Below, one piece after another: positions 1,980 through 49,178 of a stretch of 64,000 nucleotides of DNA. The notes beneath the pieces were generated by a model. It was not told where the DNA came from, searched no databases, and saw nothing but the letters and a program-made list of their open reading frames with translations. Within the stretch, counting starts at the first letter, position 1. Each line of letters opens with the position of its first letter. The position numbers and the translations under genes were made by a program. The DNA comes from Escherichia coli (GTDB taxonomy: Bacteria > Pseudomonadota > Gammaproteobacteria > Enterobacterales > Enterobacteriaceae): NCBI RefSeq assembly GCF_044324785.1, contig NZ_CP172127.1, one strand, 5' to 3'.

Positions 1980-3353
1980 TTAATGGTTGGAGAACCAGTT
2001 CAGTTTATCGCGCAGGCCAACAACCCGACCAATAATAATTAGCGATGGACTGTTCATTTGCTGCGCTAGTTCGCCCAGCTGTGTGAGCGTACCGTCAATC
2101 ACGCGCTGCGTGACTGCTGTTCCGTTTTCGACAATTGCCACCGGCATTTCGCCAGGCATACCGTGTTCAATCAGCTTTTGCTGAATGGTCGCGGCCTGAT
2201 TCAGCCCCATATAGAACACCAGCGTCTGTTTTTCTGCCGCCAGGTTTTCCCAGTCCAGCTCGCCACCGGTTTTTAAGTGTCCGGTAATTAAGCGTACGCT
2301 CTGGGCATAATCGCGATGCGTGAGCGGAATACCCGAATAGGCAGAGCAACCAGAAGCTGCGGTAATACCCGGAACCACCGAGAACGGAATACCCGCGTTG
2401 CACAGTGTTTCCAGCTCTTCGCCACCACGGCCAAAAATAAACGGATCGCCACCTTTCAGCCGCACCACGCGTTTGCCTTTTTGCGCTTCCCGCAGCAGGA
2501 TCTGGTTTATCTCTTCCTGCGGTACGCAGTGGTATCCCGCGCGTTTGCCGACGAAAACGCGATCAGCATCGCGGCGTACCAGATTCATAATATCGTCAGA
2601 AACTAGACGGTCGTAGACCACCACATCTGCCTGCTGAATTTGTTGCAGACCTTTCAGTGTCAGCAGCCCGGCATCGCCCGGACCTGCGCCAACCAGCACC
2701 ACTTCACCGCGATGGTCGAGCGGTTCGTTGATTAACTGTTCGGTCGTTTCAGTAATGGCTTTCTGATCGTTGTTTGCCAGCGACTGCGCCAGACGGTCAT
2801 TAACGAACAGTTTTTCCCAGAAACGGCGACGTTCACCCATTGTTGCGAACTGTTGTTTCACTCGACCGCGTAATTGCCCGGCGTATTTCGCTACCTGGCC
2901 CAGATGCAACGGCAGCAGTGATTCAAGTTTTTCACGCAACAGGCGTGCCAGAACCGGAGAGGTGCCGCCAGAGGAGACCGCGACCATGAGCGGTGAGCGG
3001 TCAATAATCGACGGCATAATAAAGCTGGCGGCTTTCGGCGCATCGACCACGTTACAGAAGATGCGACGAGCTTCAGCGGCTTCACTGACGCGCTGGTTAA
3101 GCGCGTCATCATCCGTCGCAGCAATCGCCAGCCAGCAGGTGTCGAGAAGGCTTTCATCAAATGGCCCTTCGACGAGGGTTAACATGCCTGCATCTGCCCA
3201 TGCGGTGAACTGCGGAATAAACGCTAATGCATTCACCGTTAAGCGAGCGCCTGCGTCTAACAGTAACCTTGCTTTGCGTTCCGCGACATCACCACCGCCG
3301 ACAATCAGACAGTCGCGATCGCGTAATTGGCAAAATATAGGCAAATGATCCAC
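1980..3353 (-). CDS. cysG: siroheme synthase (uroporphyrinogen-III methyltransferase / precorrin-2 dehydrogenase / ferrochelatase)
   Basis: 457 aa ORF, N-term [31 protein letters not shown]; length and sequence match CysG. Confidence 0.95.
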
Positions 3354-31230: not shown

Positions 31231-32472
<1,242 letters not shown>

Positions 32473-32496
32473 TTACACGTTAATTAGTTTCGAATT

Positions 32497-32523
32497 AAAA
32501 AGGGCGCTTCGGCGCCCTTTTTG
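32497..32523 (+). terminator. str operon (tufA) intrinsic terminator
   Basis: agggcgc-ttcg-gcgccct stem-loop followed by ttttt. Confidence 0.85.
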
Positions 32524-32569
32524 CATTTGTTGACTGCATTTCTTATTCGTACTGTCAGAACGAATAAAT

Positions 32570-32617
32570 TATTCATATTTAAAATATCAATTCAATTTAA
32601 TATTTTAAATATGAATA
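32570..32617. repeat. perfect 18 bp inverted repeat with 12 bp spacer in the chiA upstream region
   Basis: tattcatatttaaaatat (32570-32587) and its exact reverse complement atattttaaatatgaata (32600-32617). Confidence 0.9.
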
Positions 32618-32763
32618 TTTCTGTTTTTAAAATGCTTCATTTGTCAGGCTTTTTTCTTATTTTTAATGCCGCACTTTAATTCATATTGAAGGGTTCTCGT
32701 AAAACGTAAATAATTCCTGCGTAGGACTTTTGTTTTGCAGTTTTTACGTCACAAGGGATTATA

Positions 32764-35466
32764 ATGAAATTAAATATATTTACTAAATCTATGATTGGTA
32801 TGGGGCTGGTGTGTTCCGCTCTGCCAGCATTGGCAATGGAAGCATGGAATAACCAACAAGGTGGTAATAAATATCAGGTTATTTTCGATGGCAAAATTTA
32901 TGAAAATGCCTGGTGGGTTTCTTCTACAAATTGCCCGGGAAAAGCAAAAGCAAATGATGCAACTAACCCATGGCGTTTAAAGCGTACCGCGACAGCTGCT
33001 GAAATTAGTCAGTTTGGCAATACACTTTCCTGCGAAAAGAGCGGCAGCTCATCTTCTTCAAATTCAAATACGCCTGCATCCAATACGCCGGCTAATGGCG
33101 GTTCGGCTACACCAGCACAGGGCACTGTTCCGTCTAATTCTTCTGTAGTTGCCTGGAATAAACAGCAGGGCGGTCAGACCTGGTATGTCGTCTTTAATGG
33201 TGCGGTATATAAAAATGCCTGGTGGGTAGCCTCTTCTAACTGCCCGGGTGATGCGAAAGGCAATGATGCCAGCAACCCATGGCGTTATGTTCGTGCCGCT
33301 ACGGCAACGGAAATCTCAGAAACCAGTAATCCACAGTCCTGTACTTCAGCACCACAGCCTGCGCCGGATGTGAAACCGGCACCGGACGTTAAACCGGCTC
33401 CTGATGTTCAGCCAGCCCCAGCTGATAAGTCAAACGACAACTATGCTGTCGTAGCCTGGAAAGGTCAGGAAGGTTCTTCTACATGGTACGTTATCTACAA
33501 CGGCAGCATTTATAAGAACGCCTGGTGGGTAGGCGCGGCAAATTGCCCAGGCGATGCGAAAGAAAACGATGCCAGCAACCCATGGCGTTATGTTCGCGCG
33601 GCAACGGCAACAGAAATCAGCCTGTATGGTAATCCGGGTTCCTGTTCCGTTAAGCCGGATAATAATAGCGGTGCTGTGACTCCGGTTGATCCAACTCCGG
33701 AAACACCGGTAACTCCAGTTACTCCAACTCCGGATAATAACGAGCCATCAACACCAGCGGATAGCAGTAACGATTACTCACTGCAGGCGTGGAGTGGCCA
33801 GGAAGGTAGCGAAATTTACCATGTTATCTTCAATGGTAATGTTTATCAGAATGCCTGGTGGGTTGGTTCTGAAGATTGCCCACGTGGCACTAGTGCAGAA
33901 AACTCCAATAACCCATGGCGTCTCGTGCGTACAGCTACCGCTGCGGAAATGAGTCAGTACGGTAACCCGACTACCTGTGAAATTGATAATGGCGGCGTCA
34001 TTGTTGCGGATGGTTTCCAGGCCAGCAAAGCGTACAGCGCGAACAGCATCGTAGATTATAACGATGCACATTATAAAACCTCTGTCGATCAAGACGCATG
34101 GGGCTTTGTCCCGGGCGGCGATAACCCGTGGAAGAAATACGAACCGGCGAAAGCATGGTCCGCTTCCACCGTGTACGTGAAAGGTGATCGCGTTGTTGTT
34201 GATGGGCAGGCTTATGAAGCGCTGTTCTGGACGCAAAGCGACAACCCTGCTCTGGTTGCGAACCAAAACGCCACCGGTAGCAATAGCCGCCCGTGGAAGC
34301 CGTTAGGTAAGGCTCAGAGCTATAGCAACGAAGAGCTGAATAATGCGCCGCAGTTTAATCCAGAAACGCTTTATGCCAGCGATACGCTGATTCGCTTTAA
34401 CGGTGCGAACTACATTTCTCAGAGTAAAGTGCAGAAAGTTTCTCCTTCTGACAGCAACCCGTGGCGTGTTTTTGTTGACTGGACCGGAACCAAAGAACGT
34501 GTAGGTACGCCGAAGAAAGCGTGGCCGAAACACGTTTATGCACCGTATGTTGACTTTACGCTGAATACGATCCCGGATCTGGCTGCGCTGGCTAAGAATC
34601 ATAACGTCAACCACTTCACGCTGGCGTTTGTGGTGAGTAAAGATGCGAACACCTGTCTGCCGACATGGGGTACCGCTTACGGTATGCAGAATTACGCTCA
34701 GTACAGCAAAATCAAAGCTCTGCGTGAGGCTGGCGGCGATGTGATGCTGTCTATCGGTGGTGCTAACAACGCTCCGCTGGCTGCTTCCTGTAAGAACGTA
34801 GACGATCTGATGCAGCATTATTATGACATCGTTGATAACCTGAACCTCAGAGTCCTGGACTTCGATATCGAAGGCACCTGGGTTGCGGATCAGGCATCTA
34901 TTGAACGCCGTAACCTTGCTGTGAAGAAAGTGCAGGATAAATGGAAGTCAGAAGGCAAAGATATTGCTATCTGGTACACCTTGCCAATTCTACCGACTGG
35001 CCTGACGCCGGAAGGGATGAATGTCCTGAGCGATGCCAAAGCGAAAGGTGTTGAGCTGGCGGGTGTGAACGTGATGACAATGGACTACGGTAATGCGATT
35101 TGTCAGTCTGCAAATACCGAAGGCCAGAACATTCACGGTAAGTGTGCAACGTCTGCGATTGCCAACCTGCATTCACAATTGAAAGGCCTCCATCCCAACA
35201 AGAGCGATGCAGAAATTGACGCTATGATGGGTACCACGCCGATGGTTGGCGTGAACGACGTTCAGGGCGAGGTGTTCTATCTCTCTGATGCTCGTCTGGT
35301 CATGCAGGATGCGCAGAAGCGTAATCTCGGTATGGTTGGTATCTGGTCAATCGCGCGCGACCTGCCGGGCGGCACTAACCTGTCTCCGGAATTCCACGGC
35401 CTGACTAAAGAACAGGCACCGAAGTACGCATTTAGCGAAATCTTCGCGCCGTTTACTAAGCAATAA
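32764..35466 (+). CDS. chiA: periplasmic/secreted endochitinase (multi-domain, GH18-type catalytic domain)
   Basis: 900 aa ORF: signal peptide, four about 70-aa repeats, two CBM5/12-like motifs, C-terminal catalytic domain (DFDIEG). Confidence 0.93.
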   Translation: MKLNIFTKSMIGMGLVCSALPALAMEAWNNQQGGNKYQVIFDGKIYENAWWVSSTNCPGKAKANDATNPWRLKRTATAAEISQFGNTLSCEKSGSSSSSNSNTPASNTPANGGSATPAQGTVPSNSSVVAWNKQQGGQTWYVVFNGAVYKNAWWVASSNCPGDAKGNDASNPWRYVRAATATEISETSNPQSCTSAPQPAPDVKPAPDVKPAPDVQPAPADKSNDNYAVVAWKGQEGSSTWYVIYNGSIYKNAWWVGAANCPGDAKENDASNPWRYVRAATATEISLYGNPGSCSVKPDNNSGAVTPVDPTPETPVTPVTPTPDNNEPSTPADSSNDYSLQAWSGQEGSEIYHVIFNGNVYQNAWWVGSEDCPRGTSAENSNNPWRLVRTATAAEMSQYGNPTTCEIDNGGVIVADGFQASKAYSANSIVDYNDAHYKTSVDQDAWGFVPGGDNPWKKYEPAKAWSASTVYVKGDRVVVDGQAYEALFWTQSDNPALVANQNATGSNSRPWKPLGKAQSYSNEELNNAPQFNPETLYASDTLIRFNGANYISQSKVQKVSPSDSNPWRVFVDWTGTKERVGTPKKAWPKHVYAPYVDFTLNTIPDLAALAKNHNVNHFTLAFVVSKDANTCLPTWGTAYGMQNYAQYSKIKALREAGGDVMLSIGGANNAPLAASCKNVDDLMQHYYDIVDNLNLRVLDFDIEGTWVADQASIERRNLAVKKVQDKWKSEGKDIAIWYTLPILPTGLTPEGMNVLSDAKAKGVELAGVNVMTMDYGNAICQSANTEGQNIHGKCATSAIANLHSQLKGLHPNKSDAEIDAMMGTTPMVGVNDVQGEVFYLSDARLVMQDAQKRNLGMVGIWSIARDLPGGTNLSPEFHGLTKEQAPKYAFSEIFAPFTKQ
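32836..33996 (+). repeat. four tandem about 70-aa domain repeats within chiA separated by Ser/Pro/Thr-rich linkers
   Basis: Repeats of the form AWN.QQGG..Y.V.FNG.VY.NAWWV....CPGDAK.NDASNPWR.VR.ATA.E.S...NP..C; linker at 33358-33420 encodes PAPDVK-PAPDVK-PAPDVQ. Confidence 0.85.
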
Positions 35467-35473
35467 ATGTGTT

Positions 35474-35506
35474 GGCGATACCTTCCGGTATCGCCGCATT
35501 TTTTGT
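35474..35506 (+). terminator. chiA intrinsic terminator
   Basis: ggcgatacc-ttcc-ggtatcgcc stem-loop followed by gcattttttg. Confidence 0.8.
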
Positions 35507-35634
35507 CAATGGGCTACTTTTGGTAGCCCATTATTTTTATTCATATTTCTATTCTTTGCTTAAAAAAGAGTCTTTCCGTAATTGAAATAAGAACTATTTT
35601 CATTTATTTTTGAAGAAAGTATACGGGAGTCTCT

Positions 35635-35829
35635 ATGTACGTTTGTCTTTGTAATGGTATCAGCGATAAAAAAATTCGTCAGGCTGTGCGCCAGTTTTCC
35701 CCCCACTCGTTCCAGCAATTAAAAAAATTTATTCCGGTCGGCAATCAGTGCGGTAAATGTGTCCGGGCCGCGCGTGAAGTGATGGAGGATGAATTAATGC
35801 AGTTGCCGGAGTTTAAGGAGTCCGCATAA
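35635..35829 (+). CDS. bfd: bacterioferritin-associated ferredoxin
   Basis: 64 aa ORF MYVCLCNGISDKKIRQAV...CGKC, [2Fe-2S] cysteine pattern. Confidence 0.95.
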   Translation: MYVCLCNGISDKKIRQAVRQFSPHSFQQLKKFIPVGNQCGKCVRAAREVMEDELMQLPEFKESA

Positions 35830-35900
35830 ACGGAGTGTGTTTTTTGACTTACTCGTAAGCCGTTCTACGCTTCAAAGAGTGGAAGCGAAGGAGTCAAAAA

Positions 35901-36377
35901 ATGAAAGGTGATACTAAAGTTATAAATTATCTCAACAAACTGTTGGGAAATGAGCTTGTCGCAATCAATCAGTACTTTCTCCATGCCCGGATGTTTAAAA
36001 ACTGGGGTCTCAAACGTCTCAATGATGTGGAGTATCATGAATCCATTGATGAGATGAAACACGCCGATCGTTATATTGAGCGCATTCTTTTTCTGGAAGG
36101 TCTTCCAAACTTACAGGACCTGGGCAAACTGAACATTGGTGAAGATGTTGAGGAAATGCTGCGTTCTGATCTGGCTCTTGAGCTGGATGGCGCGAAGAAT
36201 TTGCGTGAGGCAATTGGTTATGCCGATAGCGTTCATGATTACGTCAGCCGCGATATGATGATAGAAATTTTGCGTGATGAAGAAGGCCATATCGACTGGC
36301 TGGAAACGGAACTTGATCTGATTCAGAAGATGGGCCTGCAAAATTATCTGCAAGCACAGATCCGCGAAGAAAGTTGA
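35901..36377 (+). CDS. bfr: bacterioferritin
   Basis: 158 aa [39 protein letters not shown]. Confidence 0.97.
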
Positions 36378-36384
36378 GCCGTGT

Positions 36385-36405
36385 CGGGAGGGAGAACCCT
36401 CCCGG
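36385..36405. terminator. hairpin between convergent bfr and gspO
   Basis: cgggaggg-agaac-ccctcccg stem-loop abutting the gspO stop; no clear T-run. Confidence 0.4.
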
Positions 36406-37083
36406 TTAATACGAGATCCAGGCCAGATACCCCAGGTTTATCATGCTGCCGAGCGCAAGCCACGGGCCGAATGCGATAGTGGTTATAGTCCGGCGTTGCA
36501 GAAGTTGTGAAACGATGGCGTAACCAATGCCACCCAGTGAGGCAATCAGCAGTATCATTGGCAACGTTTGCCAGCCACACCATGCGCCTGCAGCGGCCAG
36601 TAGCTTGAAATCACCGTAGCCCAATCCCTCTTTGTGACAAACTAACCAGACGCCCCAGTAAACACACCACAGCACCCCATAGCCCGCTACCGCGCCGTAA
36701 ACCGCATCATGTAAATCAATTAATCCATACTGCGCATTAAATACCAAGCCAAGCCAGAGCAGCGGTAAGGTGAGTTTGTCGGGCAGGAGCTGAGTGCGAA
36801 AATCAATAACACTGAGCGTGAGTACGAAACAGAAATAGAGAAAGAGTGCGCCAGTCACGATGGGCGTGAAAGGTGCCAGGGCGCAGGCGATAGCAGCAGC
36901 AACACAAAGTATCAGGGGCACTGTATCATTCCAGGCATATTTTTTTTGCCGGAAATGAACCAATACCTGGCGAAACGTTAACGCCGTTTTATCCTCCAAA
37001 GGCGAGAGGTGATAGGCCATGGCATTAACAAAATAACCTGCAATAAAACCAACCAGAATGAAGAGCGGCAGTAGCATTGCCAT
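36406..37083 (-). CDS. gspO: prepilin peptidase (type II secretion)
   Basis: 225 aa polytopic membrane ORF at the distal end of the gsp operon. Confidence 0.9.
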   Translation of the reverse strand: MAMLLPLFILVGFIAGYFVNAMAYHLSPLEDKTALTFRQVLVHFRQKKYAWNDTVPLILCVAAAIACALAPFTPIVTGALFLYFCFVLTLSVIDFRTQLLPDKLTLPLLWLGLVFNAQYGLIDLHDAVYGAVAGYGVLWCVYWGVWLVCHKEGLGYGDFKLLAAAGAWCGWQTLPMILLIASLGGIGYAIVSQLLQRRTITTIAFGPWLALGSMINLGYLAWISY

Positions 37084-37544
37084 TATTGTTGCTCCCTGAA
37101 GGACAAATGCTTGAGGGTGATCTCTTCGTTTCCGGCAAGAGTAAACTGAAGATCTTCAATAACAATACCGTGTGTTATCTGTGCCGTAGTGAGCCAGCGG
37201 GAGACGTTTTCGAGGGGAGCTGTGACAGGATGAATTGTCAGAGTATTGTCCGGACCGTTTTCCAGCGTGATAGTCAAATTCTCACGTTTTGCTTCCTCGA
37301 GAAGGATATTTTTGATGGGCTGCGTAAGCGCAGGATGACCAAGTAAACCATGGGTGCTCGCTTGATCCTGCATCCATTTGATGTCCTTCTTAATTTTTTG
37401 CGCGTGGGACTGATGCTCTGCAATGTAGGTATCTATCGGTTTTATCACCCCAAGCCAACAAAAAACGCCGAGCGAGAGAACCGCCAGTGCCGCAACGAGC
37501 TGTTTTTCCGATGTGGATTTTTCTGCCCACCATGATTTAATCAT
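37083..37544 (-). CDS. gspM: type II secretion protein M
   Basis: ORF track 161 aa from 37568; an ATG at 37544 (MIKSWWAEKSTSEKQ, 153 aa) lies directly after the gspL stop and is the more likely start. Confidence 0.85.
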   Translation of the reverse strand: MIKSWWAEKSTSEKQLVAALAVLSLGVFCWLGVIKPIDTYIAEHQSHAQKIKKDIKWMQDQASTHGLLGHPALTQPIKNILLEEAKRENLTITLENGPDNTLTIHPVTAPLENVSRWLTTAQITHGIVIEDLQFTLAGNEEITLKHLSFREQQ

Positions 37545-38707
37545 TTCCCTGAGCTCCTTACTGTCCATACGCCACTGACCGGATCTTTTTCTGTTTTTTC
37601 CATCGGAAGCCAGGACTGTGTTAATTCACAGAAACGATCGATATTGGCTTCACTCTTAGCACTCATTTTTAAGGTCAGCGACTTTTGCTTCTGGCTATAG
37701 TTCGCCTCCATTAACTGCAGTTCAGGGTGTTCCAGCAGAAGTGTTTGTAAATGATAGAGCAACGGCACAGCTTCAGGATATTGCTGAGCGAGTTGCTGCT
37801 TAAAGTAAAAACGAAAGTTGTGGGTGCGTTTGATTTGCGGGAAATAACGTTGCCAGGTTTCTTGCTGTTGTTGCTGAAGTTGATCTTCAATCTTAAGCGT
37901 ATGCCAGAGCGCGATGCCCCGGCTGCCAACAAAAGAAAGAATGGCGAGAACGAGACAGCTTACTGCCAGGCGGGCGAGCCATTTTCCCGATTTTCTTACA
38001 GTTTTCTGTTTACGAAAAACACCATGCAGCATGTCATAGCGCTGGAATGCAATATCGGCAGAATACAAACTCAGTGATGGTATTTCAGGATGCTGGATAA
38101 GTGGATTGGCCACTGCAACGCCGTGAGGTGCTACACCATAACAAAGCATATTCTCAGGCGGAAACTGGGCAGCAAGATGCTGTAACCAGTGTTCATCCAG
38201 TTCGTTGAAGGCATGTGCGGCACTGCGAATGAGCCAGCTTGTTTGCTGGTTAACCAGAGTCCAGCTATCTACTTCCCAGGGAAGATAGCAGCCATCTGGC
38301 AAAACCCGCGTCACGTTGAGTCCGGCAGTATGTAAACGCTCAAGATAGCGACTGAGTTTCTCCGACTGAATGCCTATCACCTCGACACTTTCGTTTTGTT
38401 TATCGACAACCGTCCAGTGCCAGTCCTGGGTGTTGTCGGGTAACGTCTCCTCTGCCAGCCATTGCAATGTTTGTGCGGTGAGTTTGTATTTGACGTTGGG
38501 CAGCGTGAGGGAACGATATAAAAGACCCTCTGGTGGGATCAAAAGATGAACATTTCCGGCACCGGGCTGATCGGCCAGCGACTCCAGCGGAAGATCGTCT
38601 GTGAGCGTATGTACCGAAGATACGCTATCTGCGGAGAACGTCATCCATTCCCAATGCTTACGCAGCGTCGAGGAAGAACGTATAACCATCAACGATTCAG
38701 GCATCAC
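37541..38707 (-). CDS. gspL: type II secretion protein L
   Basis: 388 aa ORF (387 if the second Met is used); operon position. Confidence 0.88.
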   Translation of the reverse strand: MMPESLMVIRSSSTLRKHWEWMTFSADSVSSVHTLTDDLPLESLADQPGAGNVHLLIPPEGLLYRSLTLPNVKYKLTAQTLQWLAEETLPDNTQDWHWTVVDKQNESVEVIGIQSEKLSRYLERLHTAGLNVTRVLPDGCYLPWEVDSWTLVNQQTSWLIRSAAHAFNELDEHWLQHLAAQFPPENMLCYGVAPHGVAVANPLIQHPEIPSLSLYSADIAFQRYDMLHGVFRKQKTVRKSGKWLARLAVSCLVLAILSFVGSRGIALWHTLKIEDQLQQQQQETWQRYFPQIKRTHNFRFYFKQQLAQQYPEAVPLLYHLQTLLLEHPELQLMEANYSQKQKSLTLKMSAKSEANIDRFCELTQSWLPMEKTEKDPVSGVWTVRSSGK

Positions 38708-38718
38708 GATCCTTATGA

Positions 38719-39702
38719 TTAGTAGAGTTGCAGCGTACGCCGATAGATTTGGGCGCTCTGCTGTTTACGGTTGAAAAAAATATGGCTTTGCCATCCCTGG
38801 GATTGTTCGTCGCTGATACTTTCCGTACTCAGCGTAAAATAGCGGCTATAGGGAAAGAGATGCCCTTTCACCTGAGCTACCAGAGGCTTCACGCCGGAGA
38901 AATCCTGCTGCGCCCAGTAAAGAAATGCATCCGTGGTTAGCCAGCCTTCCCTGGGCCTTTTTTGTAATAAGACCCGAGCGTCAGCATCCGTGATGTTATT
39001 GAGGAATAACGCTCTGAAGAGCGGAATATCGTTCTCAGTAAGCATATTAAGATTGATGCTAAGTTCCGTGGTTGGGAGAACGCAGACATACGGGATAAGT
39101 CGCTGATAGATGTTTTCGGTTATGCCTTTTATCTGACGCAATTCGCCGGTCAGAAAAAGCATCTGATTGGCGCTATGGCGAGGCGGCGTTTGGCTTTGGT
39201 AAAAGTTATCTTCTGCGCCGTGAAAGCGTGGCGAATCATCGGCATCAATATAGTCAGCGATTGATTGCACGATCTCATCGGTGTTTCCGCGATCGATACC
39301 GGCGTTAATCAGCAGCGCACTGAATACCTGGGTGGGAAAATCAGGGGAAGCCAGCGGGTCGTCAGAGATTTTTGCTAACGCATTGAGATTAAAACAGTGC
39401 TGGGCATCGCGTAACTGCCACTTCACTGTATTGCCATCTTCCAGCTGCAACTGTTGCGGCTGTGCCCAGTACTGCTGCAACGTGGTCTGTCTGTCGTTAT
39501 CTTTAACGTCCTGGGTGAGGCTGGCAAGCGCAAGTTTCTCCGCCAGTTCAATATCATATTGCCGTTGCAGATGATGGTTTACCTGGCGGGTTCGCTGAAG
39601 CTGGCTGTGAAAACTGAGCGTCATGTCTGCTGCCAGAGCAGCCATGAGCGCCAGTAGCATCAGCACAATGAGCAGCGCGACGCCGCGTTGTTCATTATTC
39701 AT
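38719..39702 (-). CDS. gspK: type II secretion minor pseudopilin K
   Basis: 327 aa [28 protein letters not shown]. Confidence 0.9.
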   Translation of the reverse strand: MNNEQRGVALLIVLMLLALMAALAADMTLSFHSQLQRTRQVNHHLQRQYDIELAEKLALASLTQDVKDNDRQTTLQQYWAQPQQLQLEDGNTVKWQLRDAQHCFNLNALAKISDDPLASPDFPTQVFSALLINAGIDRGNTDEIVQSIADYIDADDSPRFHGAEDNFYQSQTPPRHSANQMLFLTGELRQIKGITENIYQRLIPYVCVLPTTELSINLNMLTENDIPLFRALFLNNITDADARVLLQKRPREGWLTTDAFLYWAQQDFSGVKPLVAQVKGHLFPYSRYFTLSTESISDEQSQGWQSHIFFNRKQQSAQIYRRTLQLY

Positions 39703-40282
39703 GGTTATTATTCCCGGCCTGAGTCTGAGCTGGCGACTCTTCTCTTGCTAATTGCTCAGGTAATGCAAAACGACACTGTAGTGCCCCATATTGCTGAGTC
39801 TTCAGATGTAGCGTGACTGAGAGAGGATGTTCTTTGCTTTCCCCGCTGTTACTTTCCAGAAGAAAGCTCTCGACATGTTCCAGCATCGCCTGGGCAGGTT
39901 GATCCTTCCTGCCATCCACAGAAGTACGAACAGCACGGTAAAGCGTATGATTTCGTAGATACCAGTGAACTGTGAGTAAGGTTTGTGCTTCACTGAGAGG
40001 AGCCAGCGGATCACGACTTTGCGTGGTAAAAATAGCTTCTTCACCCAACACCATGATCTTGTCCGTACTCCGATTCCTCCGGGCGACCAATTGCAGGAGA
40101 TCGTTATCAAGAATGGTGATGGTGCGCTGTAGCTGATTGAACTGCTGGATTTCTTTCTGTGAACGTTGATGCAACTCGGAAGCTTGCGAAAAAATCATAA
40201 ACGCCAGCACGCTAAGCATTGAGAAAATCGCCAGCGCCGCCATGACCTCCAGCAATGTGAAACCCTGCTGGCGATTAATCAT
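39695..40282 (-). CDS. gspJ: type II secretion minor pseudopilin J
   Basis: 195 aa [23 protein letters not shown], prepilin N-terminus. Confidence 0.9.
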
Positions 40283-40652
40283 CTTGTGCCTGCCCGGATT
40301 TATTATCGATGCTTTGATAACGCGTAAGCGAGGTTGTCTGACCGCTGGGTAATGTCACCGTTATGGTGCGTTCCAGAAGCGTGCCGTCTTTGCTTGAGTG
40401 GATATCGCTGCGCCAGTTCCACTCTTCGCCATTTATTAACTCTTTGCCAGAACTGGACGTGTTTTCCTCGCCGAATGAATCTTGTGACTGAAGCTGGTTA
40501 TCCGCTATCCACAATGCCAGCGTCTCGTTGCGCATTCGCTCGATGGCATTTCGTTGCCCTTGCATACTGCTCATTAAAGTCAGAGCAACAGCGGTGAAAA
40601 TACTCATCGCCAGTAAGACTTCAAGCAGTGTCATCCCTGATTGTTTGTTCAT
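40275..40652 (-). CDS. gspI: type II secretion minor pseudopilin I
   Basis: 125 aa from the ATG at 40652 ([19 protein letters not shown]), overlapping the gspH stop as ATGA; the ORF-track start at 40691 is an extension. Confidence 0.88.
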
Positions 40653-41158
40653 GGGCGGGTATCTCTGACGAGCGTTTGATCCAGGGGCCATGATCCTGAA
40701 CAGACTAACGTTAGGAGCGGCTCACCGGTCCCGGCGTTAGCCATCAACAAAGAGAAGGGCGTGATTTGTCCGTCGGCCAGAACCACCACCTGCGGTTGGT
40801 TGCTGTCATCAGGTTTAAATGGCTGAAGTTGAATTGAGAGTTCTTCACCCCAGTCATTTTTGCTCTCGTCTGCGGCATCTTCTTGTAATGGAACCCAGCG
40901 CCAGGCTGATGGTGTTTTGCCCGGTACCATAATGCGCCATGCTGAATCAGAGAAATGGATACCGACAGGCTGACCACTCAGCGTGGCGCGGTCGATGGCT
41001 AATTCAAGTGCAGCGGTAAACCGCGCCGCTGTTTCGCGCGCACGAGTGTTGGCGGTATCTTCCCGACCATATGTGAAGAGCACCACACTTGCCGTGATAG
41101 CGACCAGCGCCAGCACCAGCATCATCTCCAGCAGGGTAAACCCGCGTTGCTGATTCAT
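40649..41158 (-). CDS. gspH: type II secretion minor pseudopilin H
   Basis: 169 aa [22 protein letters not shown]. Confidence 0.9.
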
Positions 41159-41165
41159 CGCTGAC

Positions 41166-41603
41166 TTACTTTTTCTTCTTGCTCAAACCCCAGTTGGTGA
41201 TGTCATCCTCGGTTCCCATTTCACCATCGGGTCCTGCTGAAAGCAGATCGTATGCACCATGTTCACCAGGATTAACGAGGACATAATCATTGCCCCAGGG
41301 ATCGGCAGGCAGACGCTTGATATAACCTTCTTTGTTATAGTTTGCGGCCAGCGGTGGTAGTGTCGGTGCTTCGACTAAGGATTCAAGTCCCTGATTTGTG
41401 GTTGGATAGCGATGATTGTCGAGCTTGTACATATCCAGGGCGTTTTCCAGCGCCACAATATCGCTGACGGCTTTTTGATTATCCGCCTTTTCTTTATTGC
41501 CCATCAGGTTGGGAACCACCAGGCTGGCAAGTACGCCGATAATGACGATCACCACCATAATTTCCAGTAATGTAAAACCGCGTTGCTTATCCGTTGCGCG
41601 CAT
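41166..41603 (-). CDS. gspG: type II secretion major pseudopilin G
   Basis: 145 aa [29 protein letters not shown]. Confidence 0.93.
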   Translation of the reverse strand: MRATDKQRGFTLLEIMVVIVIIGVLASLVVPNLMGNKEKADNQKAVSDIVALENALDMYKLDNHRYPTTNQGLESLVEAPTLPPLAANYNKEGYIKRLPADPWGNDYVLVNPGEHGAYDLLSAGPDGEMGTEDDITNWGLSKKKK

Positions 41604-41612
41604 TGTTTTTCC

Positions 41613-42809
41613 TTAGTTAATCATTGAGTTAAGTTGAAGAAGAGGTTGGAGTACCGACACGACAATAAACAGGACGATCAGTGCCATCGTAATAATGAGC
41701 GCTGGCTCGAAGATGGAGAGCGTTAAGGCGATCCGATTTTGTTGGAGTGTCTCCTGGTTATCTGCGGCTCTGACCATTAACGTGCCGAGCTGCCCGCTTT
41801 TTTCGCCAGAGGCCACCATGTAGAGCATCATCGGCGGGAAAATTGCGGTTTGTTCCAGCGAAAGATGAATGCTGTTACCCTGGCGGACGTTCTCTGCCGC
41901 ATTTGCCAGACGCTTGCGGATTTCGAGGTTGCTGAGACTTTCGGTGGACAAATTCATCCCATCCAGCAGAGGGACGCCGCTGGATTGCAAAATACTTAAA
42001 GTGCGGAGATAGCGTGCGCTGTTAATGGTGCAAATCAGCGGGCCGATGAGTGCAACGCGTAGCAATATGGCATGAAAACGGTGGCGGTTATTGCCGCGTT
42101 TTAACCAGAGCCAGAAACCTACAGCGACAATAAACACTGTCGCTAGTAATGTCGGGCCGGTATGTTGCAACGTGTCGCTCAGACCTAAAAGAATGCGTGT
42201 ACTCAGCGGCAGTTGCTGCTTCATATGCACGAACTGTTCGGTAATTTTGGGCACGACAGCAGTGAGGAGAATAATCACGACCACAATCGCCACCGCAGTC
42301 AGCATGCAGGGGTAGATCAGCGACTGAATGAGTTTGCTGCGGATTTTCTGCCGATTTTCATTGTAATCAGCCAGTTTTTCCAACACCGGGGCCAGCAGCC
42401 CGCTCTTTTCGCCCGCTTTAACCAGGGTACGGTAGAGCGAATCGAAAAGCGTGGGAAAATGTTGTAACGCATCGGAAAGGGGATGCCCTTCAAGGATGGC
42501 GCTGCGTACCTGATTTAACACATCAGCCAGTCGTTTATTACTGCTTTGTTGACCGATTACGGCAAGGCTCTCTTCCAGAGGTAATGCCGCTGCGCTTAAG
42601 GTTGCCAACTGCCGGGTGAAAAGCGTCAGTTCACTATGGCTGATCCTCGGGCGACGTGTTTTTACTCCCGAACTTTTTTGGGGGCGAATATCCAGCAGGA
42701 AAAGCCCTTCTTCACGCAGCCGCAGTCGTGCCTGACGTTCATCGTTAGCATCAATGATCCCTTGCAATTTTTGACCATCCTGGGTCATGGCGCGATAGCG
42801 ATAATTCAT
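41613..42809 (-). CDS. gspF: type II secretion inner-membrane platform protein F
   Basis: 398 aa ORF; start overlaps the gspE stop. Confidence 0.93.
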
Positions 42810-44287
42810 GCTTCGCTCTCCAGCGTGGCACTGGCGACGCGCATAACCTCATCCCAGGAGGTGTCACCGCTTATCACTTTTTGCAGGCCATTTTTGATTA
42901 AGGCATTGTGTTGTTGCCGGACCAGTCGCTCCAGTGCTTGTTCATCCACATTTTCATGAATAGCGGCCCGCAATTCCGGCGTCACCACCATCATTTCGTG
43001 GATCGCCATGCGCCCCTGATAGCCGGATTGATGGCAATGAGGGCAGCCTACGGGAGTGCCAATTGTCGTCACCGCGAGCTGATGATGTTTAAACATCTGC
43101 GCTTGTTGCGGCGATACAGGCGTGAATTGTCGGCATTGCGGACACAGACGACGAACCAGACGTTGCGCGATAATCCCTGCCAGTGAAGACGAAAGCAGGA
43201 ATGATTCGACGCCCATGTCGCGTAGCCGGGTGACTGCGCCTGATGCACTGTTAGTGTGGAGTGTTGAGAGTACCAGATGGCCTGTGAGCGAGGCCTGAAC
43301 CGCAATTTGCGCGGTTTCTGTATCACGAATCTCCCCCACCATGACGACATCCGGGTCCTGGCGAAGTATGGCGCGCAGGCCGCGAGCGAAAGACATATCC
43401 ACGCGGGTATTCACCTGCGTTTGTCCTATGCCTTCCAGTTCATATTCCACGGGATCTTCTACCGTCAGAATATTACGGCCAGGGGTATTAAGCGCCGAAA
43501 GAATGGCGTAGAGCGTGGTGCTTTTACCGGAGCCTGTCGGCCCTGTTACCAGGATAATACCGTGCGGAAGCTGAATGAGATTTTCTAAATCCTGTTTATC
43601 CGCTGCCGTCATCCCCAGGTTGTTCAATGAAAGCTGGAGGCTGTTTTTATCCAGTAGGCGGAGCACAGCGCGTTCACCATAGATGGATGGCAGTGTGGAT
43701 ACGCGGACATCTATGTTACGTCGCCCGATACGCAAACTGATTCTTCCATCCTGTGGAATACGTTTTTCGGCGATATCAAGACGAGCCATGACCTTAATTC
43801 GGGAGATAAGCAGTGCCGCCAGTTTTTTGTTGGGCTGTAAAATTGTCCGCAAAACGCCGTCGATGCGAAAACGGATCGACATTGTTTTTTCATAGGTTTC
43901 AATGTGGATATCGGAGGCGGTTTCTTTGATGGCCTCACTCAAAATAGCATTGATCAAGCGGATAACGGGTGCCGCTGAATCTTCATTCAGCAGATCTTCA
44001 TTTGCGGGCATCTCTTCCGAAAGCGAGAGAAGATCGACGGATTGATCGATATCCTGCGCAATCTGTTGCGACTCACCGGTATTCTGATGGAATACCGCTT
44101 CCAGCCGGGCTTCGAAATCAGCCTGTGACAAACTGGTCATGGTCTGGCACTGACCAACCTGACGCTGAATATCGAGTAACCGCTCGAATGGCGTATCGGC
44201 GAGATAAATAATCTCGCCCTCTGAATAGAGATAACCAATTCGTTGTGCCAGCGCCCAACTGGCGGGGTACGGTGAGTGAATTTTCAT
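42806..44287 (-). CDS. gspE: type II secretion ATPase E
   Basis: 493 aa ORF, Walker [13 protein letters not shown]-terminal CxxC pairs. Confidence 0.95.
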
Positions 44288-44296
44288 AAGAATGCC

Positions 44297-46249
44297 TCAC
44301 CGTGACGATGGCGCAGGGGCGTGACTGTTGAACGTGTTCTCATTCAGCACCGGCAAATCTTCCGAGCCAACCAGCGCTTTTGATTTCCCGTCGATTCGCA
44401 GCTGTTGCTCCTGACGGTAGCGGGTGTATTTCTCTTTTGACAGTGAGCGATAAACATCATCGTCACGGATAATCGTCGGGCGGATAAATACCATCAGGTT
44501 GCGTTTAGCGCGCTCGGTCGAGGTATAGCGGAAGAGTTGTCCCACTAAAGGAATATCGCCAAGCAGAGGAACCTTTGACACTTGCTCTTTAGAAAAATCA
44601 TCCAGCAATCCGCCCAGGACCACCGTTTCACCGGTTTTGACCAGCACGGCATTTTGAATAGTTCGGGTGTTAAATGTCGGGCCGAGCGTCGAATTAGACG
44701 AAGAGTCAACGCTGGAGACTTCCTGCTCTATTTCGAGCAACACCGCGTCGCCTTCATTGACCTGCGGAGTGACTTTGAGTTTTGTCCCCACCGTTTTGCG
44801 TTCGACTGTATTAAAGACGTTATCCCCAGAAGTGGTCTGGGAGCCGGATAGCACCGGCACATCCTGCCCAACGTTGAAGGACGCGAGTTTATTATCCAGC
44901 GTTACGATGCTCGGGGTGGCGAGGATGTCATTTTTATTATTACTGGCCAGCGCAGTCAACAATACGCCCCAGTCGCCATTGAAGAAGCCTGCGGCCATGC
45001 CATTGTAGGCGCTAAACATATCCCAGGCAGGATTCGCGCTGGTGATCCCACCATTCTTTTTATAATCAGCCACACCTTGCGCAGCGTTAAAAATCGGTAA
45101 TCCCGTATTGGTAAATTGCTGTGTGCCAACGTTTTTATTCGCCCATTGCACGCCGAGGTTGAGTCCATTTCCATCCTGAACTTCAACGATGATTGCCTCA
45201 ACCAGCACCTGTGCACGGCGAATATCCAGACGTGCAATTACCGTGGCGAGTTTCTCCTGGACGGGCTGGTCAGCGGTAATGACCAAAGAGTTGGTCTGTT
45301 CATCAGCGGTAATGGCGACATTATCCATCGCAGAAGTAGAAGAAGGCTTACGCGAATTCCCTTTTTCATCTTTCAGCTTTTCGGAAACACCGGTTAACAC
45401 TTCCACCAGATTCGTGGCCTTGGCATATTTCAGGTAATAGACCCGGGTATTTCCTTCCTCGCTCTCTTCAACATCAAGTGTTTTCAGTAACGAGGTGATG
45501 CGCTGACGTGCCTTTTCCGGCCCGCTGATAATAAGTGAGTTCGTTCGCTTATCTGCCACAATCTTCGCGGAAAGGAGGGCTGGCATCTGGCTTTTACCGT
45601 GGCTTTCGCTGATTAATTGATTCAAAATTTCGGCGAGATCTTCCGCTGACGCATATTCCAGATGAATAATTTGCTGCTTCTCTGTGCCGATGACATCAAC
45701 GCGCTTTATGACTTCAATCAGTTTATTAATGGTGGAGGCACGACCGGTCAGAATAAGAACGTTGGAGGGTTCATAATGCACGACATTGCCGACGCTGCCG
45801 CCATCCATCATTTGGCGAAGCAGAGGGGCAAGATCACGAGCAGGAACGTTCTCAAGCGGTACGATACGAGTGACCAACTCATCACCAGCGCCAGGACGAG
45901 AACTGTCAGCAATCATCCCTGGTGATGTTTTTACATTAGCTGAGCGCACCACTTTCAGAAAACCATTGTCCAGCGTGATCACGGAATAACCGTAAAGATC
46001 AAGAATACTTAAAAAGAACTGGTAGTACTCCTGTTGGCTAAACGTATCATTACTGCGTACGGAAATGGTTCCCTGTACCGAAGGGTCGATCAGGATCGTT
46101 TTGCCAAGATGCTGACCCACTATTTCCACGAACTGGCGGATATCGGCGTTATTGAAGTTAGCGCCGTATTGTTCGTTCTCAGCGTGCCCTGCACAAGGCA
46201 TGAGTAGTGCTGCCAGCAAGCAGCAGGTGATTTTATTGAGTCCTTTCAT
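44297..46249 (-). CDS. gspD: type II secretion secretin D
   Basis: ORF track 654 aa from 46261; the ATG at 46249 ([23 protein letters not shown], 650 aa) is the more likely start. Confidence 0.9.
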
Positions 46250-47048
46250 GACGCTGTCCATTCATTCCTGTAAGTTCCGCGACGGAAACATTTATCAAGC
46301 GGGGTACGCCGTTGCGACGAATTGTAAACTGAGCACTTTGTTGAGTTAGCAGTAAACTTAATGCCTGTGAAACCTCATCAGGGTGGGTCAGCGAAAGATT
46401 ATTGATCCTGAGGGCGATATCCCCTGGTTGTAGCAAGCTGGTGGTAAATGCGTTTAGGCCCTGACGAGGGTTCAATCGAAGCCCGTATATCTGTTCTCCA
46501 TCACGTATAGGCGTGGCGATAATATAATCAGCGAGTACATTTTGACTTTCCGAATCAGGCTGCTTGATGATGTCAGGTAGCCCTGGATGGAGTGTTACTT
46601 TTTCGTAATGCCCGTGAGTTTCAAACACAACGCTGGTTTTATTTATTTTTCTAATAAACGTTCCCGGCGCTGACTCAAGGGCTTCGTTGAGGGAGTATCG
46701 CTTTTGTTCGCTCCCCTCATTAATTAAGACAAAAGAAGTCTCATCATTCGATGTGAGTACAATACCATTAAGCGCTATAGAGAGCTTCGGTGTTTCCTGA
46801 TTAACTGCCACGGGATTTGCATCTTTTACCCCAGCATGATTATCGTTGCGCCATAAAGCGGCAAGGCTGAACTCAGACTGAAATGCATTTGTTGGTTGAT
46901 TAATGATCTGTCCATTTTTAACTATAGTTGTATGGAAATAATTCACATTAAAAATAATCAGCCCTATACTTATAAATATAATCAATATATTGATGGCAGC
47001 ATCTTTATTATGATTCGCCAGATGGAAGGGGAAGCGTAGTGTGGGCAC
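46233..47048 (-). CDS. gspC: type II secretion protein C
   Basis: 271 aa ORF with N-terminal TM segment; first gene of the gspC-O operon. Confidence 0.9.
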
Positions 47049-47227
47049 GATGTATGTTCTAATAAAATAGATTGGGTGGGTTGTATATTGACGTTAGTAT
47101 AAATAGTATTAATGCCGCTTGCATGAATCAAGCAAAATTTATTTATATTAGTAATATGTATTTAATTAATAAATGCATACATTATTTTTATGATTAAGGA
47201 TAATCAATAATTAAAACAGGAAGTTCT
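47049..47227. promoter_or_regulatory. AT-rich divergent gspC / gspA control region
   Basis: 179 bp AT-rich gap between divergent operons. Confidence 0.5.
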
Positions 47228-48697
47228 ATGTCTACGAGAAGAGAAGTTATTCTTTCCTGGTTACGTGAGAAACGTCAGACCTGGCGTCTGTGCTATTTGT
47301 TGGGTGAGGCTGGAAGTGGAAAAACCTGGCTGGCGCAGCAACTACAAAAAGATAAACATCGCCGTGTGATTACTTTAAGCCTCGTTGTTTCCTGGCAAGG
47401 TAAGGCCGCATGGATCGTTACCGACGATAATGCGGCTGAACAGGGCTGCCGTGACAGCGCCTGGACGCGAGATGAGATGGCGGGTCAATTACTGTATGCG
47501 CTTCATCGAACTGATAGTCGCTGCCCTCTTATTATTATTGAAAATGCTCACCTGAATCACCGCCGCATACTGGATGATCTCCAACGCGCGATATCTCTTA
47601 TTCCTGACGGTCAATTTTTGCTGATCGGCAGACCCGATCGAAAAGTCGAACGTGATTTTAAAAAACAGGGCATTGAACTTGTCTCGACAGGACGTCTGAC
47701 GGAGCACGAGCTTAAGGCAAGCATCCTTGAAGGTCAGAATATTGACCAGCCCGATCTCCTTTTAACTGCCAGAGTTCTGAAACGGATAGCTTTATTATGT
47801 CGGGGAGATCGCAGAAAGCTGGCGCTTGCCGGCGAAACAATTAGCTTATTACAGCAAGCCGAGCAGACCAGCGTTTTCACTGCAAAACATTGGCGAATGA
47901 TTTACCGCGTATTAGGTGATAACCGCCCCCGGAAAATGCAGCTTGCCGTGGTGATGAGTGGAACCATTATCGCACTTACCTGTGGTTGGCTACTGCTGTC
48001 CTCTTTCACAGATCCGTTCCCCGTTCCTGCGTGGCTGGTACCCGTAACGCCAGTAGTTAAACAAGATATGACTAAGGATATTGCTCATGTAGTGATGCGC
48101 GATAGTGAGGCGCTAAGCGTGTTATACGGCGTATGGGGGTACGAGGTCCCAGCTGATTCGGCCTGGTGCGATCAGGCAGTAAGAGCGGGGCTGGCATGTA
48201 AAAGTGGGAATGCTTCTTTACAAACATTGGTAGATCAGAATTTGCCCTGGATCGCATCGCTTAAAGTCGGGGACAAAAAATTGCCTGTTGTGGTCGTTCG
48301 CGTCGGTGATGCTACCGTTGATGTCCTCGTAGGGCAGCAAACCTGGACGCTGACACATCAATGGTTTGAGTCGGTATGGACGGGTGATTATCTTCTGTTA
48401 TGGAAAATGTCGCCGGAAGGGGAGAGTACCATTACGCGTGATAGCAGCGAGGAAGAGATTCTCTGGCTGGAAACGATGTTAAACCGCGCATTGCATATTT
48501 CGACAGAACCTTCGGCAGAGTGGCGTCCCTTGTTGGTAGAAAAAATAAAGCAATTTCAAAAAAGCCACCACTTGAAAACTGACGGTGTTGTTGGCTTTTC
48601 AACGTTAGTACATCTCTGGCAGGTGGCAGGGGAGAGTGCCTACTTATATCGGGATGAAGCAAATATTTCCCCGGAAACAACAGTGAAGGGGAAATGA
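47228..48697 (+). CDS. gspA: type II secretion accessory protein A (AAA+ ATPase, peptidoglycan-binding C-terminus)
   Basis: 489 aa ORF, Walker A LGEAGSGKT. Confidence 0.92.
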   Translation: MSTRREVILSWLREKRQTWRLCYLLGEAGSGKTWLAQQLQKDKHRRVITLSLVVSWQGKAAWIVTDDNAAEQGCRDSAWTRDEMAGQLLYALHRTDSRCPLIIIENAHLNHRRILDDLQRAISLIPDGQFLLIGRPDRKVERDFKKQGIELVSTGRLTEHELKASILEGQNIDQPDLLLTARVLKRIALLCRGDRRKLALAGETISLLQQAEQTSVFTAKHWRMIYRVLGDNRPRKMQLAVVMSGTIIALTCGWLLLSSFTDPFPVPAWLVPVTPVVKQDMTKDIAHVVMRDSEALSVLYGVWGYEVPADSAWCDQAVRAGLACKSGNASLQTLVDQNLPWIASLKVGDKKLPVVVVRVGDATVDVLVGQQTWTLTHQWFESVWTGDYLLLWKMSPEGESTITRDSSEEEILWLETMLNRALHISTEPSAEWRPLLVEKIKQFQKSHHLKTDGVVGFSTLVHLWQVAGESAYLYRDEANISPETTVKGK

Positions 48698-48698
48698 C

Positions 48699-49118
48699 AT
48701 GTTTGAATTCTATATCGCCGCGCGTGAGCAGAAAGAAACAGGTCACCCTGGTATCTTCTCCCGACAAAAACACAGCACCATAATATATGTCATTTGTTTA
48801 TTGCTGATTTGCCTGTGGTTTGCAGGAATGGTGTTGGTTGGTGGGTATGCCAGGCAGCTATGGGCGCTTTGGATAGTAAAAGCAGAAGTCACAGTAGATG
48901 CTGAAACGCCCGCTTTTAAACAATCAACACAACACTATTTCTTCAAAAAACAGCCACTCCCCGTCGTCGAATCCGTCGAGGAGGAAGATGACCCCGGCGT
49001 CGCGGTTGAGAATGCCACCTCTTCTTCTGAAGACGAAGAAAATACTGTAGAAGAAAGCGACGAGAAAGCCGGTTTAAGAGAGCGTGTCAAAAATGCGCTG
49101 AACGAACTTGAGAGATAA
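48699..49118 (+). CDS. gspB: type II secretion accessory protein B
   Basis: 139 aa ORF with TM segment and acidic C-terminus. Confidence 0.88.
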   Translation: MFEFYIAAREQKETGHPGIFSRQKHSTIIYVICLLLICLWFAGMVLVGGYARQLWALWIVKAEVTVDAETPAFKQSTQHYFFKKQPLPVVESVEEEDDPGVAVENATSSSEDEENTVEESDEKAGLRERVKNALNELER

Positions 49119-49150
49119 CCCGAAAGCTGTTTACTTTACTAGCAATACGC

Positions 49151-49178
49151 TTGCGTTCGGTGGTTAAGTATGTATAAT
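49151..49178 (+). promoter_or_regulatory. S10 operon promoter
   Basis: TTGCGT (49151-49156), 16 bp spacer, TATAAT (49173-49178); predicts a leader of about 171 nt. Confidence 0.7.

Follow-up and report, generated by a model that had tools for sequence, protein, structure and literature searches.

The 179-bp spacer between gspC and gspA is the orthologue of the K-12 gspAB/gspC-O divergent control region, and it is best explained as the H-NS-silenced control region shared by both operons, as published for K-12, a reading to which we assign a probability of about 0.9. The spacer lies at positions 47049-47227 of the window, by which we mean the whole 64,000-nucleotide stretch of Escherichia coli DNA that was analysed. 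The locus is the chromosomal (K-12-type, 'alpha') type II secretion system of E. coli, and the spacer is the control DNA common to gspAB and gspC-O. The region, its silencing by H-NS and its counter-silencing by SlyA are already known from K-12, and the window sequence is essentially the same. The analysis adds three observations. Conservation is higher in the spacer than at codon third positions nearby; a metagenomic relative, L016, retains all four promoter hexamers (23 of 24 bases); and low spacer GC is found in syntenic loci with only about 43% GspA identity.

In the mechanism that we favour, which is the published one, two weak but intrinsically competent sigma-70 promoters would stand back to back within an AT-rich stretch, some 350-400 bp long, that reaches into the first part of gspC. 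Coated by H-NS, and probably by StpA as well, this tract would hold both promoters off under laboratory conditions, while the naked spacer DNA would be accessible to RNA polymerase. Expression would follow the removal of H-NS or its displacement by a counter-silencer such as SlyA, which would give partial relief. The region is of practical interest for engineering protein secretion in E. coli.

Anatomy, composition and probable silencing of the divergent region

The first-pass annotation of this DNA had described a strongly AT-rich, 179-bp region between divergent gsp operons, and the open reading frame map places its non-coding borders exactly there, between the gspC GTG at 47048 and the gspA ATG at 47228. 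On the plus strand, gspA (47228-48697, 489 aa) is preceded by a Shine-Dalgarno sequence, AGGAA, at 47218-47222 and opens the gspAB operon; gspB (48699-49118, 139 aa, identified from its reading frame and the K-12 annotation) completes it, and the rpsJ ribosomal operon comes next. On the minus strand, gspC (46233-47048, 271 aa) is the first gene of the gspC-O operon, in which a full gspD-gspO set extends to gspO at 36406-37083, followed by bfr, bfd and chiA. Pfam domains agree with these assignments, with PF21327 (GspA_C39-like), PF01471 (PG_binding_1) and PF13401 (AAA_22) in the gspA product and PF11356 (T2SSC) in that of gspC. The order chiA-bfd-bfr-gspO...gspC / gspA-gspB / rpsJ operon matches the K-12 annotation, and the gap between b3324 and b3323 (K-12 3455399-3455577, NC_000913.3) is 179 bp with identical geometry. 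The window spacer shares 178 of 179 bases with K-12. The sole difference, at 47175, is a G in the window and an A in K-12, and it falls between the two hexamers of the predicted gspA promoter; the G is also present in strain LCP30S3_I5, and strain N3 is identical to the window at 179 of 179 positions.

The start of gspC carries no Shine-Dalgarno-like sequence upstream of its GTG (47049-47062, minus strand), the mRNA reading ...UUAGAACAUACAUC-GUG. Gene prediction in L016 settled on an ATG further downstream for gspC. The GTG start nevertheless stays plausible, as the N-terminal peptide is kept in frame in L016 (PTL.F.FHLA.HN), though it may initiate translation only weakly.

The AT-richness is borne out far beyond chance. 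GC content is 23.5% in the spacer against 50.8% in the whole window, a value as low in just 0.025% of 179-bp windows, and the spacer ties for the lowest GC trough within the 64 kb. Its core is more extreme, with 12-16% GC in the 50-bp windows at 47125-47199. The tract is also broader than first noted, as it extends into the first ~170 bp of gspC to a total of about 350-400 bp; the part at 46875-47024 (minus strand) has 24-30% GC and encodes an N-terminal membrane segment rich in Ile, Asn and Phe. The marked AT-richness over at least 100 bp that distinguishes an H-NS-silenced promoter region is thus found here along ~350 bp. For contrast, the rpsJ leader has 44-49% GC.

Three other AT troughs were observed in the window. 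One, at 32448-32804, is as deep as the spacer, with a minimum of 22.9% GC; it occupies the tufA-chiA spacer just upstream of the chiA reading frame (32764-35466, 900 aa), and the two deepest troughs accordingly flank the chiA-bfd-bfr-gsp block. Another is found at 35495-35681 (minimum 27.9% GC), between chiA and the bfd/bfr region, and the third, at 1703-1941 (minimum 28.5% GC), adjoins a 457-aa reading frame at 1980-3353 that is probably cysG.

Occupancy of the orthologous DNA by H-NS is documented in K-12, as the first-pass annotation had expected of so AT-rich a substrate. The comparison with H-NS ChIP data that it had put forward as a check comes out positive: gspA/gspC or gspCDEF is listed as H-NS-bound in the ChIP-seq data of Kahramanoglou 2011 and the ChIP-chip data of Oshima 2006, both as tabulated in PMC3661553 and PMC5797941, and genomic SELEX places an H-NS site in the gspA/gspC spacer itself (PMC3946193). 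In IPOD-HR profiles from which the RNA polymerase signal is subtracted, no prominent occupancy peak is left near the ribosomal operons except in the gspA-gspC spacer, and the authors describe the region as 'demonstrated to be repressed by H-NS', the precise location of H-NS having been previously unknown (bioRxiv 10.1101/2020.01.29.924811). The other check it had put forward, expression in wild type and hns mutant, is likewise published for K-12: according to the papers that cite Francetic et al. 2000 (EMBO J 19:6697), H-NS silences gsp, the genes are derepressed in hns mutants and chitinase is secreted without H-NS. Transcriptomics of BL21(DE3) found the K-12-type (alpha) gsp cluster unexpressed under every condition tested.

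That an activator would act at this place, a further expectation from the sequence, is also supported. In EMSA, the H-NS antagonist SlyA binds the same 179-bp K-12 fragment (apparent Kd about 50-100 nM), and its overproduction raises the gspCDEF transcript 2.4-fold (Curran et al. 2017, PMC5797941). The primers used in that study match both ends of the window spacer. The induction is modest and requires overproduction of the protein. Given the identity of 178 of 179 bases with K-12, the window strain would be expected to respond to H-NS and SlyA as K-12 does.

Two sigma-70 promoters are predicted in the spacer. The gspAB promoter (47166-47194, plus strand) combines a -35 TTAATA at 47166-47171, a 17-bp spacer and a -10 TATGAT at 47189-47194, and transcription would start near 47201. 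It was found independently by our consensus scan and has the same hexamers as the K-12 prediction in PMC3946193. The hexamers of the gspC-O promoter (47103-47131, minus strand) were taken from that paper and then located by reading the window sequence: the -35 TTGATT runs from 47131 to 47126 and, after 17 bp, the -10 TACTAT from 47108 to 47103, which would place the start near 47096 and give a leader of about 48 nt. RpoD holoenzyme binds the K-12 spacer in genomic SELEX, and both promoters were predicted there as TTAATA-17-TATGAT for gspAB and TTGATT-17-TACTAT for the gspC operon (PMC3946193). The hexamers match the consensus at just 9 of 12 positions, and the scan of the whole spacer gave 3 promoter-like sites, no excess over the 2.8 +/- 1.6 in shuffles. 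The back-to-back -35 elements are separated by 34 bp (47132-47165), the most AT-rich core of the spacer, within which H-NS might nucleate.

The tract also corresponds to a region singled out in K-12. With the two MG1655 sequence versions taken to be offset by ~1978 bp, presumably accurate to about 2 bp, island 3453428_392 maps to about 46829-47220 of the window, roughly the AT-rich tract. This 'promoter island', K-12 gspA(-)/gspC(+), spans 392 bp and is H-NS-bound (Panyukov & Ozoline 2013, PMC3661553).

Conservation and the case for a possible further regulator

Of 5426 complete E. coli genomes, 3132-3140 carry the spacer, and in 2958 of 3132 it is at least 99% identical to the window. Across nine aligned E. 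coli sequences it has 3 segregating sites in 179 positions, against 64 in 762 codon third positions (Fisher p = 6e-4), and a nucleotide diversity of 0.0047; the corresponding values are 0.034 for third and 0.0099 for first plus second codon positions. One of the nine was picked for its spacer variant, which makes the diversity estimate conservative.

The same pattern holds at greater distance. L016, whose GspA is 75% identical, has an alignable spacer of 180 bp with 23.9% GC that is 85.6% identical to that of the window, whereas codon third positions reach 67-74% and first plus second positions 80-83%. It keeps the gspA Shine-Dalgarno sequence and nearly all of the hexamer bases (gspA -10, 6/6; gspA -35, 5/6; gspC -10 and -35, both 6/6), and judged by this alignment purifying selection acts on the predicted promoter elements within the Escherichia-like lineage. 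The footprint is uneven. A highly conserved block at 47055-47148, with 85-95% identity per 20-bp block, spans the gspC leader, the gspC -10 and -35 elements and the start of the inter-promoter core, and the leader itself (47049-47096) is 93.8% identical. Most other 20-bp blocks also reach 85-95%, and the last has 79%. The sole poorly conserved segment is 47149-47168, with 47.6% identity, which holds the palindrome TTAATTAA.

Such conservation hints that the spacer is preserved beyond what a non-specific AT-rich H-NS substrate would need, and that additional sequence-specific constraints may act on it. It also bears on the strongest of the alternatives, that besides H-NS the block at 47055-47148 is the target of a further sequence-specific regulator, or of leader-based control, that serves as the natural switch. 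The identity of the block to L016 exceeds that of codon first and second positions, spacer diversity within the species lies below that of sites dominated by non-synonymous change, and SlyA, with its 2.4-fold effect, gives only limited induction. Part of the conservation is nevertheless accounted for by the gspC -10 and -35 elements within the block; the comparison draws on a single diverged sequence, L016; the leader gives no RNA structure signal (z = -0.77) and no Rfam match; and no candidate factor is known. We consider this addition to the H-NS model unlikely. The narrower proposal, that the low diversity (0.0047 against 0.034) and the conserved block reflect a binding site for a new sequence-specific regulator that acts as the natural switch of the secretion system, appears more doubtful still.

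Under the favoured reading of an H-NS-silenced region, the residual value of the footprint is that it separates the constrained parts, both promoters and the gspC leader, from the unconstrained TTAATTAA segment. It is in the conserved block that the natural on-signal of a widespread but silent secretion system would first be sought.

Low GC at this site is retained much further away. In three enterobacterial loci from metagenome-assembled and Logan contigs, with GspA only 42-45% identical, the order gspF-E-D-C / gspA-gspB / rpsJ is kept, and the spacers, which do not align with that of the window, remain richer in AT than the locus as a whole (34-37% GC, the locus having 52%). Between these loci and the window, rpsJ-rplC DNA is 95.5-95.8% identical, and finding a gsp cluster so much more diverged than its neighbours at the same site suggests that it has evolved fast or been exchanged for a foreign copy. 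A conserved spacer 25-mer scanned over species-representative genomes gave one match only, an exact one in a 250-bp contig (NZ_VLXZ01000343.1, 0.86x coverage) of an Alkalicoccobacillus porphyridii assembly (Bacillales), which is almost certainly E. coli contamination.

Composition, palindromes and coding potential

The composition of the spacer might be read as that of an ordinary promoter, with no dedicated silencing, poor expression being due to weak promoters and to a gspC that lacks a Shine-Dalgarno sequence. Intergenic DNA in E. coli is generally AT-richer than coding DNA, and the 9/12 hexamers and the bare gspC GTG described above fit this reading. So do the results for specific H-NS signals. 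A high-affinity H-NS nucleation motif, TCGATAAATT (Lang et al. 2007), and intrinsic curvature from phased A-tracts are frequent, though not required, in H-NS-silenced regions; the best match to the motif in the spacer is 8/10 (47136-47145), with no local enrichment, and a simple periodicity test on the spacer found helical AA/TT phasing at a 10-11 bp period, the signal of curvature, not above shuffles (z at most 0.3). Against this, the spacer belongs to the lowest 0.025% of windows in GC and lies far below the rpsJ leader, and in K-12 three methods find H-NS on it and derepression depends on hns. Ordinary promoter composition is therefore a very improbable explanation.

Short palindromes, with TTAATTAA as the example, had also been remarked on in the first-pass annotation; they are present, but their significance did not hold up. 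Six sites in the spacer (47108, 47135, 47162, 47165, 47173 and 47208) are perfect palindromes of 6 bp or more, and one of them, TTAATTAA at 47162-47169, reaches 8 bp. Dinucleotide-preserving shuffles contain on average 7.4 of the former length and 2.45 of 8 bp or more, and the spacer is equalled or exceeded by 76% and 92% of the shuffles, respectively. A second TTAATTAA, at 46719-46726 within the gspC coding sequence, shows how the motif recurs by chance in an AT-leaning gene.

These figures weigh on the idea that TTAATTAA, ATGCAT and ATTAAT are operators of a dedicated dimeric regulator of both operons, which is attractive in so far as regulators of the SlyA type bind AT-rich pseudo-palindromes and SlyA binds the K-12 fragment. 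The palindromes are at or below shuffle expectation in number and length, TTAATTAA falls in the only segment that is not conserved in L016, and ATGCAT (47173-47178) owes its existence to the strain-specific G at 47175 and is missing from K-12. The candidate SlyA site proposed for K-12, TTATATTAGTAA, lies at 47143-47154, 79 bp upstream of gspA (PMC5797941). Read on the minus strand, it agrees with the SlyA consensus TTAGCAAGCTAA at 8 of 12 positions, a score that nothing else in the spacer exceeds and that 83% of shuffles equal, and TTA-N6-TAA occurs once in the spacer, where 0.57 are expected; a recognisable TTAGCAAGCTAA-like site is thus absent from the spacer. With a match at chance level and only 7 of its 12 bases conserved in L016, where half of it falls in the scrambled segment 47149-47168, TTATATTAGTAA is not demonstrably a specific SlyA site. 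The palindromes were rejected as operators, a role to which we give hardly any credence. Since no H-NS motif exceeds 8/10, the simple periodicity test gave no sign of A-tract phasing and the SlyA-like site is at chance level, H-NS binding is probably driven by composition and minor-groove shape and not by discrete sites.

That the spacer encodes a small RNA or a small protein, and is not purely regulatory DNA, is the least credible proposal of all: of its two mechanical reading frames, the one of 41 aa (47072-47197, plus strand) is interrupted by a 1-bp indel in L016 and the one of 49 aa (46982-47131, minus strand) begins at a -35 hexamer, ahead of every predicted start site; the terminator-like hairpin at 47117-47133 has its second stem pair broken in L016, its conserved arm being the gspC -35 element; the gspC leader gave no structure signal, as noted above; and the sole Rfam match in the spacer is a chance miRNA (E = 0.47, 21.7 bits against a threshold of 74 bits).

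Loss of the region and comparison with known systems

About 42% of the 5426 complete E. coli genomes are without the control region. In O157:H7-type genomes such as strain 7409, compared with window 32700-49170, chiA and gspA-gspN are missing, and all that is left from bfr to rpsJ is a truncated gene for the prepilin peptidase (gspO); towards rpsJ the breakpoint falls at about 49172. In two other strains the control region is replaced by insertion sequences with adjacent deletions: EC2001 has IS1A in place of 46293-47192, ending inside the predicted gspA -10 element, and APEC 102026 has the IS5-like ISKpn26 in place of 46788-47292. IS1 and IS5 target H-NS-bound AT-rich DNA, as is known from the bgl operon. 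In strain LCP30S3_I5, codon 19 of gspA (at the equivalent of window 47283) has changed from TGG to the premature stop TAG, and the RefSeq annotation accordingly starts gspA 60 bp later, which looks like incipient pseudogenisation.

The nearest known system is the K-12 gspA-gspC region (b3323/b3324; Francetic, Belin, Badaut & Pugsley 2000), which is the same locus with the same length, flanking genes and synteny; it differs by the one spacer base at 47175, and its flanking genes are about 2% diverged from those of the window. Similar to the cryptic loci at which SlyA counters H-NS (hlyE/clyA, fimB, leuO and casA; PMC5797941), the gsp spacer is AT-rich and, in K-12, H-NS-bound, SlyA-binding and modestly induced, but unlike them it has no convincing SlyA consensus site, the best match being at chance and not conserved. 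The mapped extent of the orthologue's island among the K-12 'promoter islands' (PMC3661553) fits the AT-rich tract found here. Those islands, defined by an excess of overlapping promoter-like sites along 300 bp or more, were called by PlatProm, whereas our simple consensus scan found 3 sites against 2.8 in shuffles.

Within the window, the closest parallel is the chiA promoter region. It likewise sits in an AT trough, but it is unidirectional and lies about 14 kb away, on the opposite side of the gsp cluster. The product of chiA is the chitinase secreted by the gsp system, and chiA has been termed 'another H-NS silenced gene' (PMC5797941).

Outside the alpha cluster, the T2SS-beta of ETEC offers the broadest comparison. 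This system differs from the gsp locus in being a unidirectional operon at the yghJ/sslE locus, with no gspAB/gspC divergon. It is reportedly also repressed by H-NS and StpA. T2SS-beta (yghJ-pppA-yghG-gspC-M; Yang et al. 2007, J Bacteriol 189:142) is the second type II secretion cluster of E. coli, and B strains express it in laboratory culture but leave the alpha cluster unexpressed.
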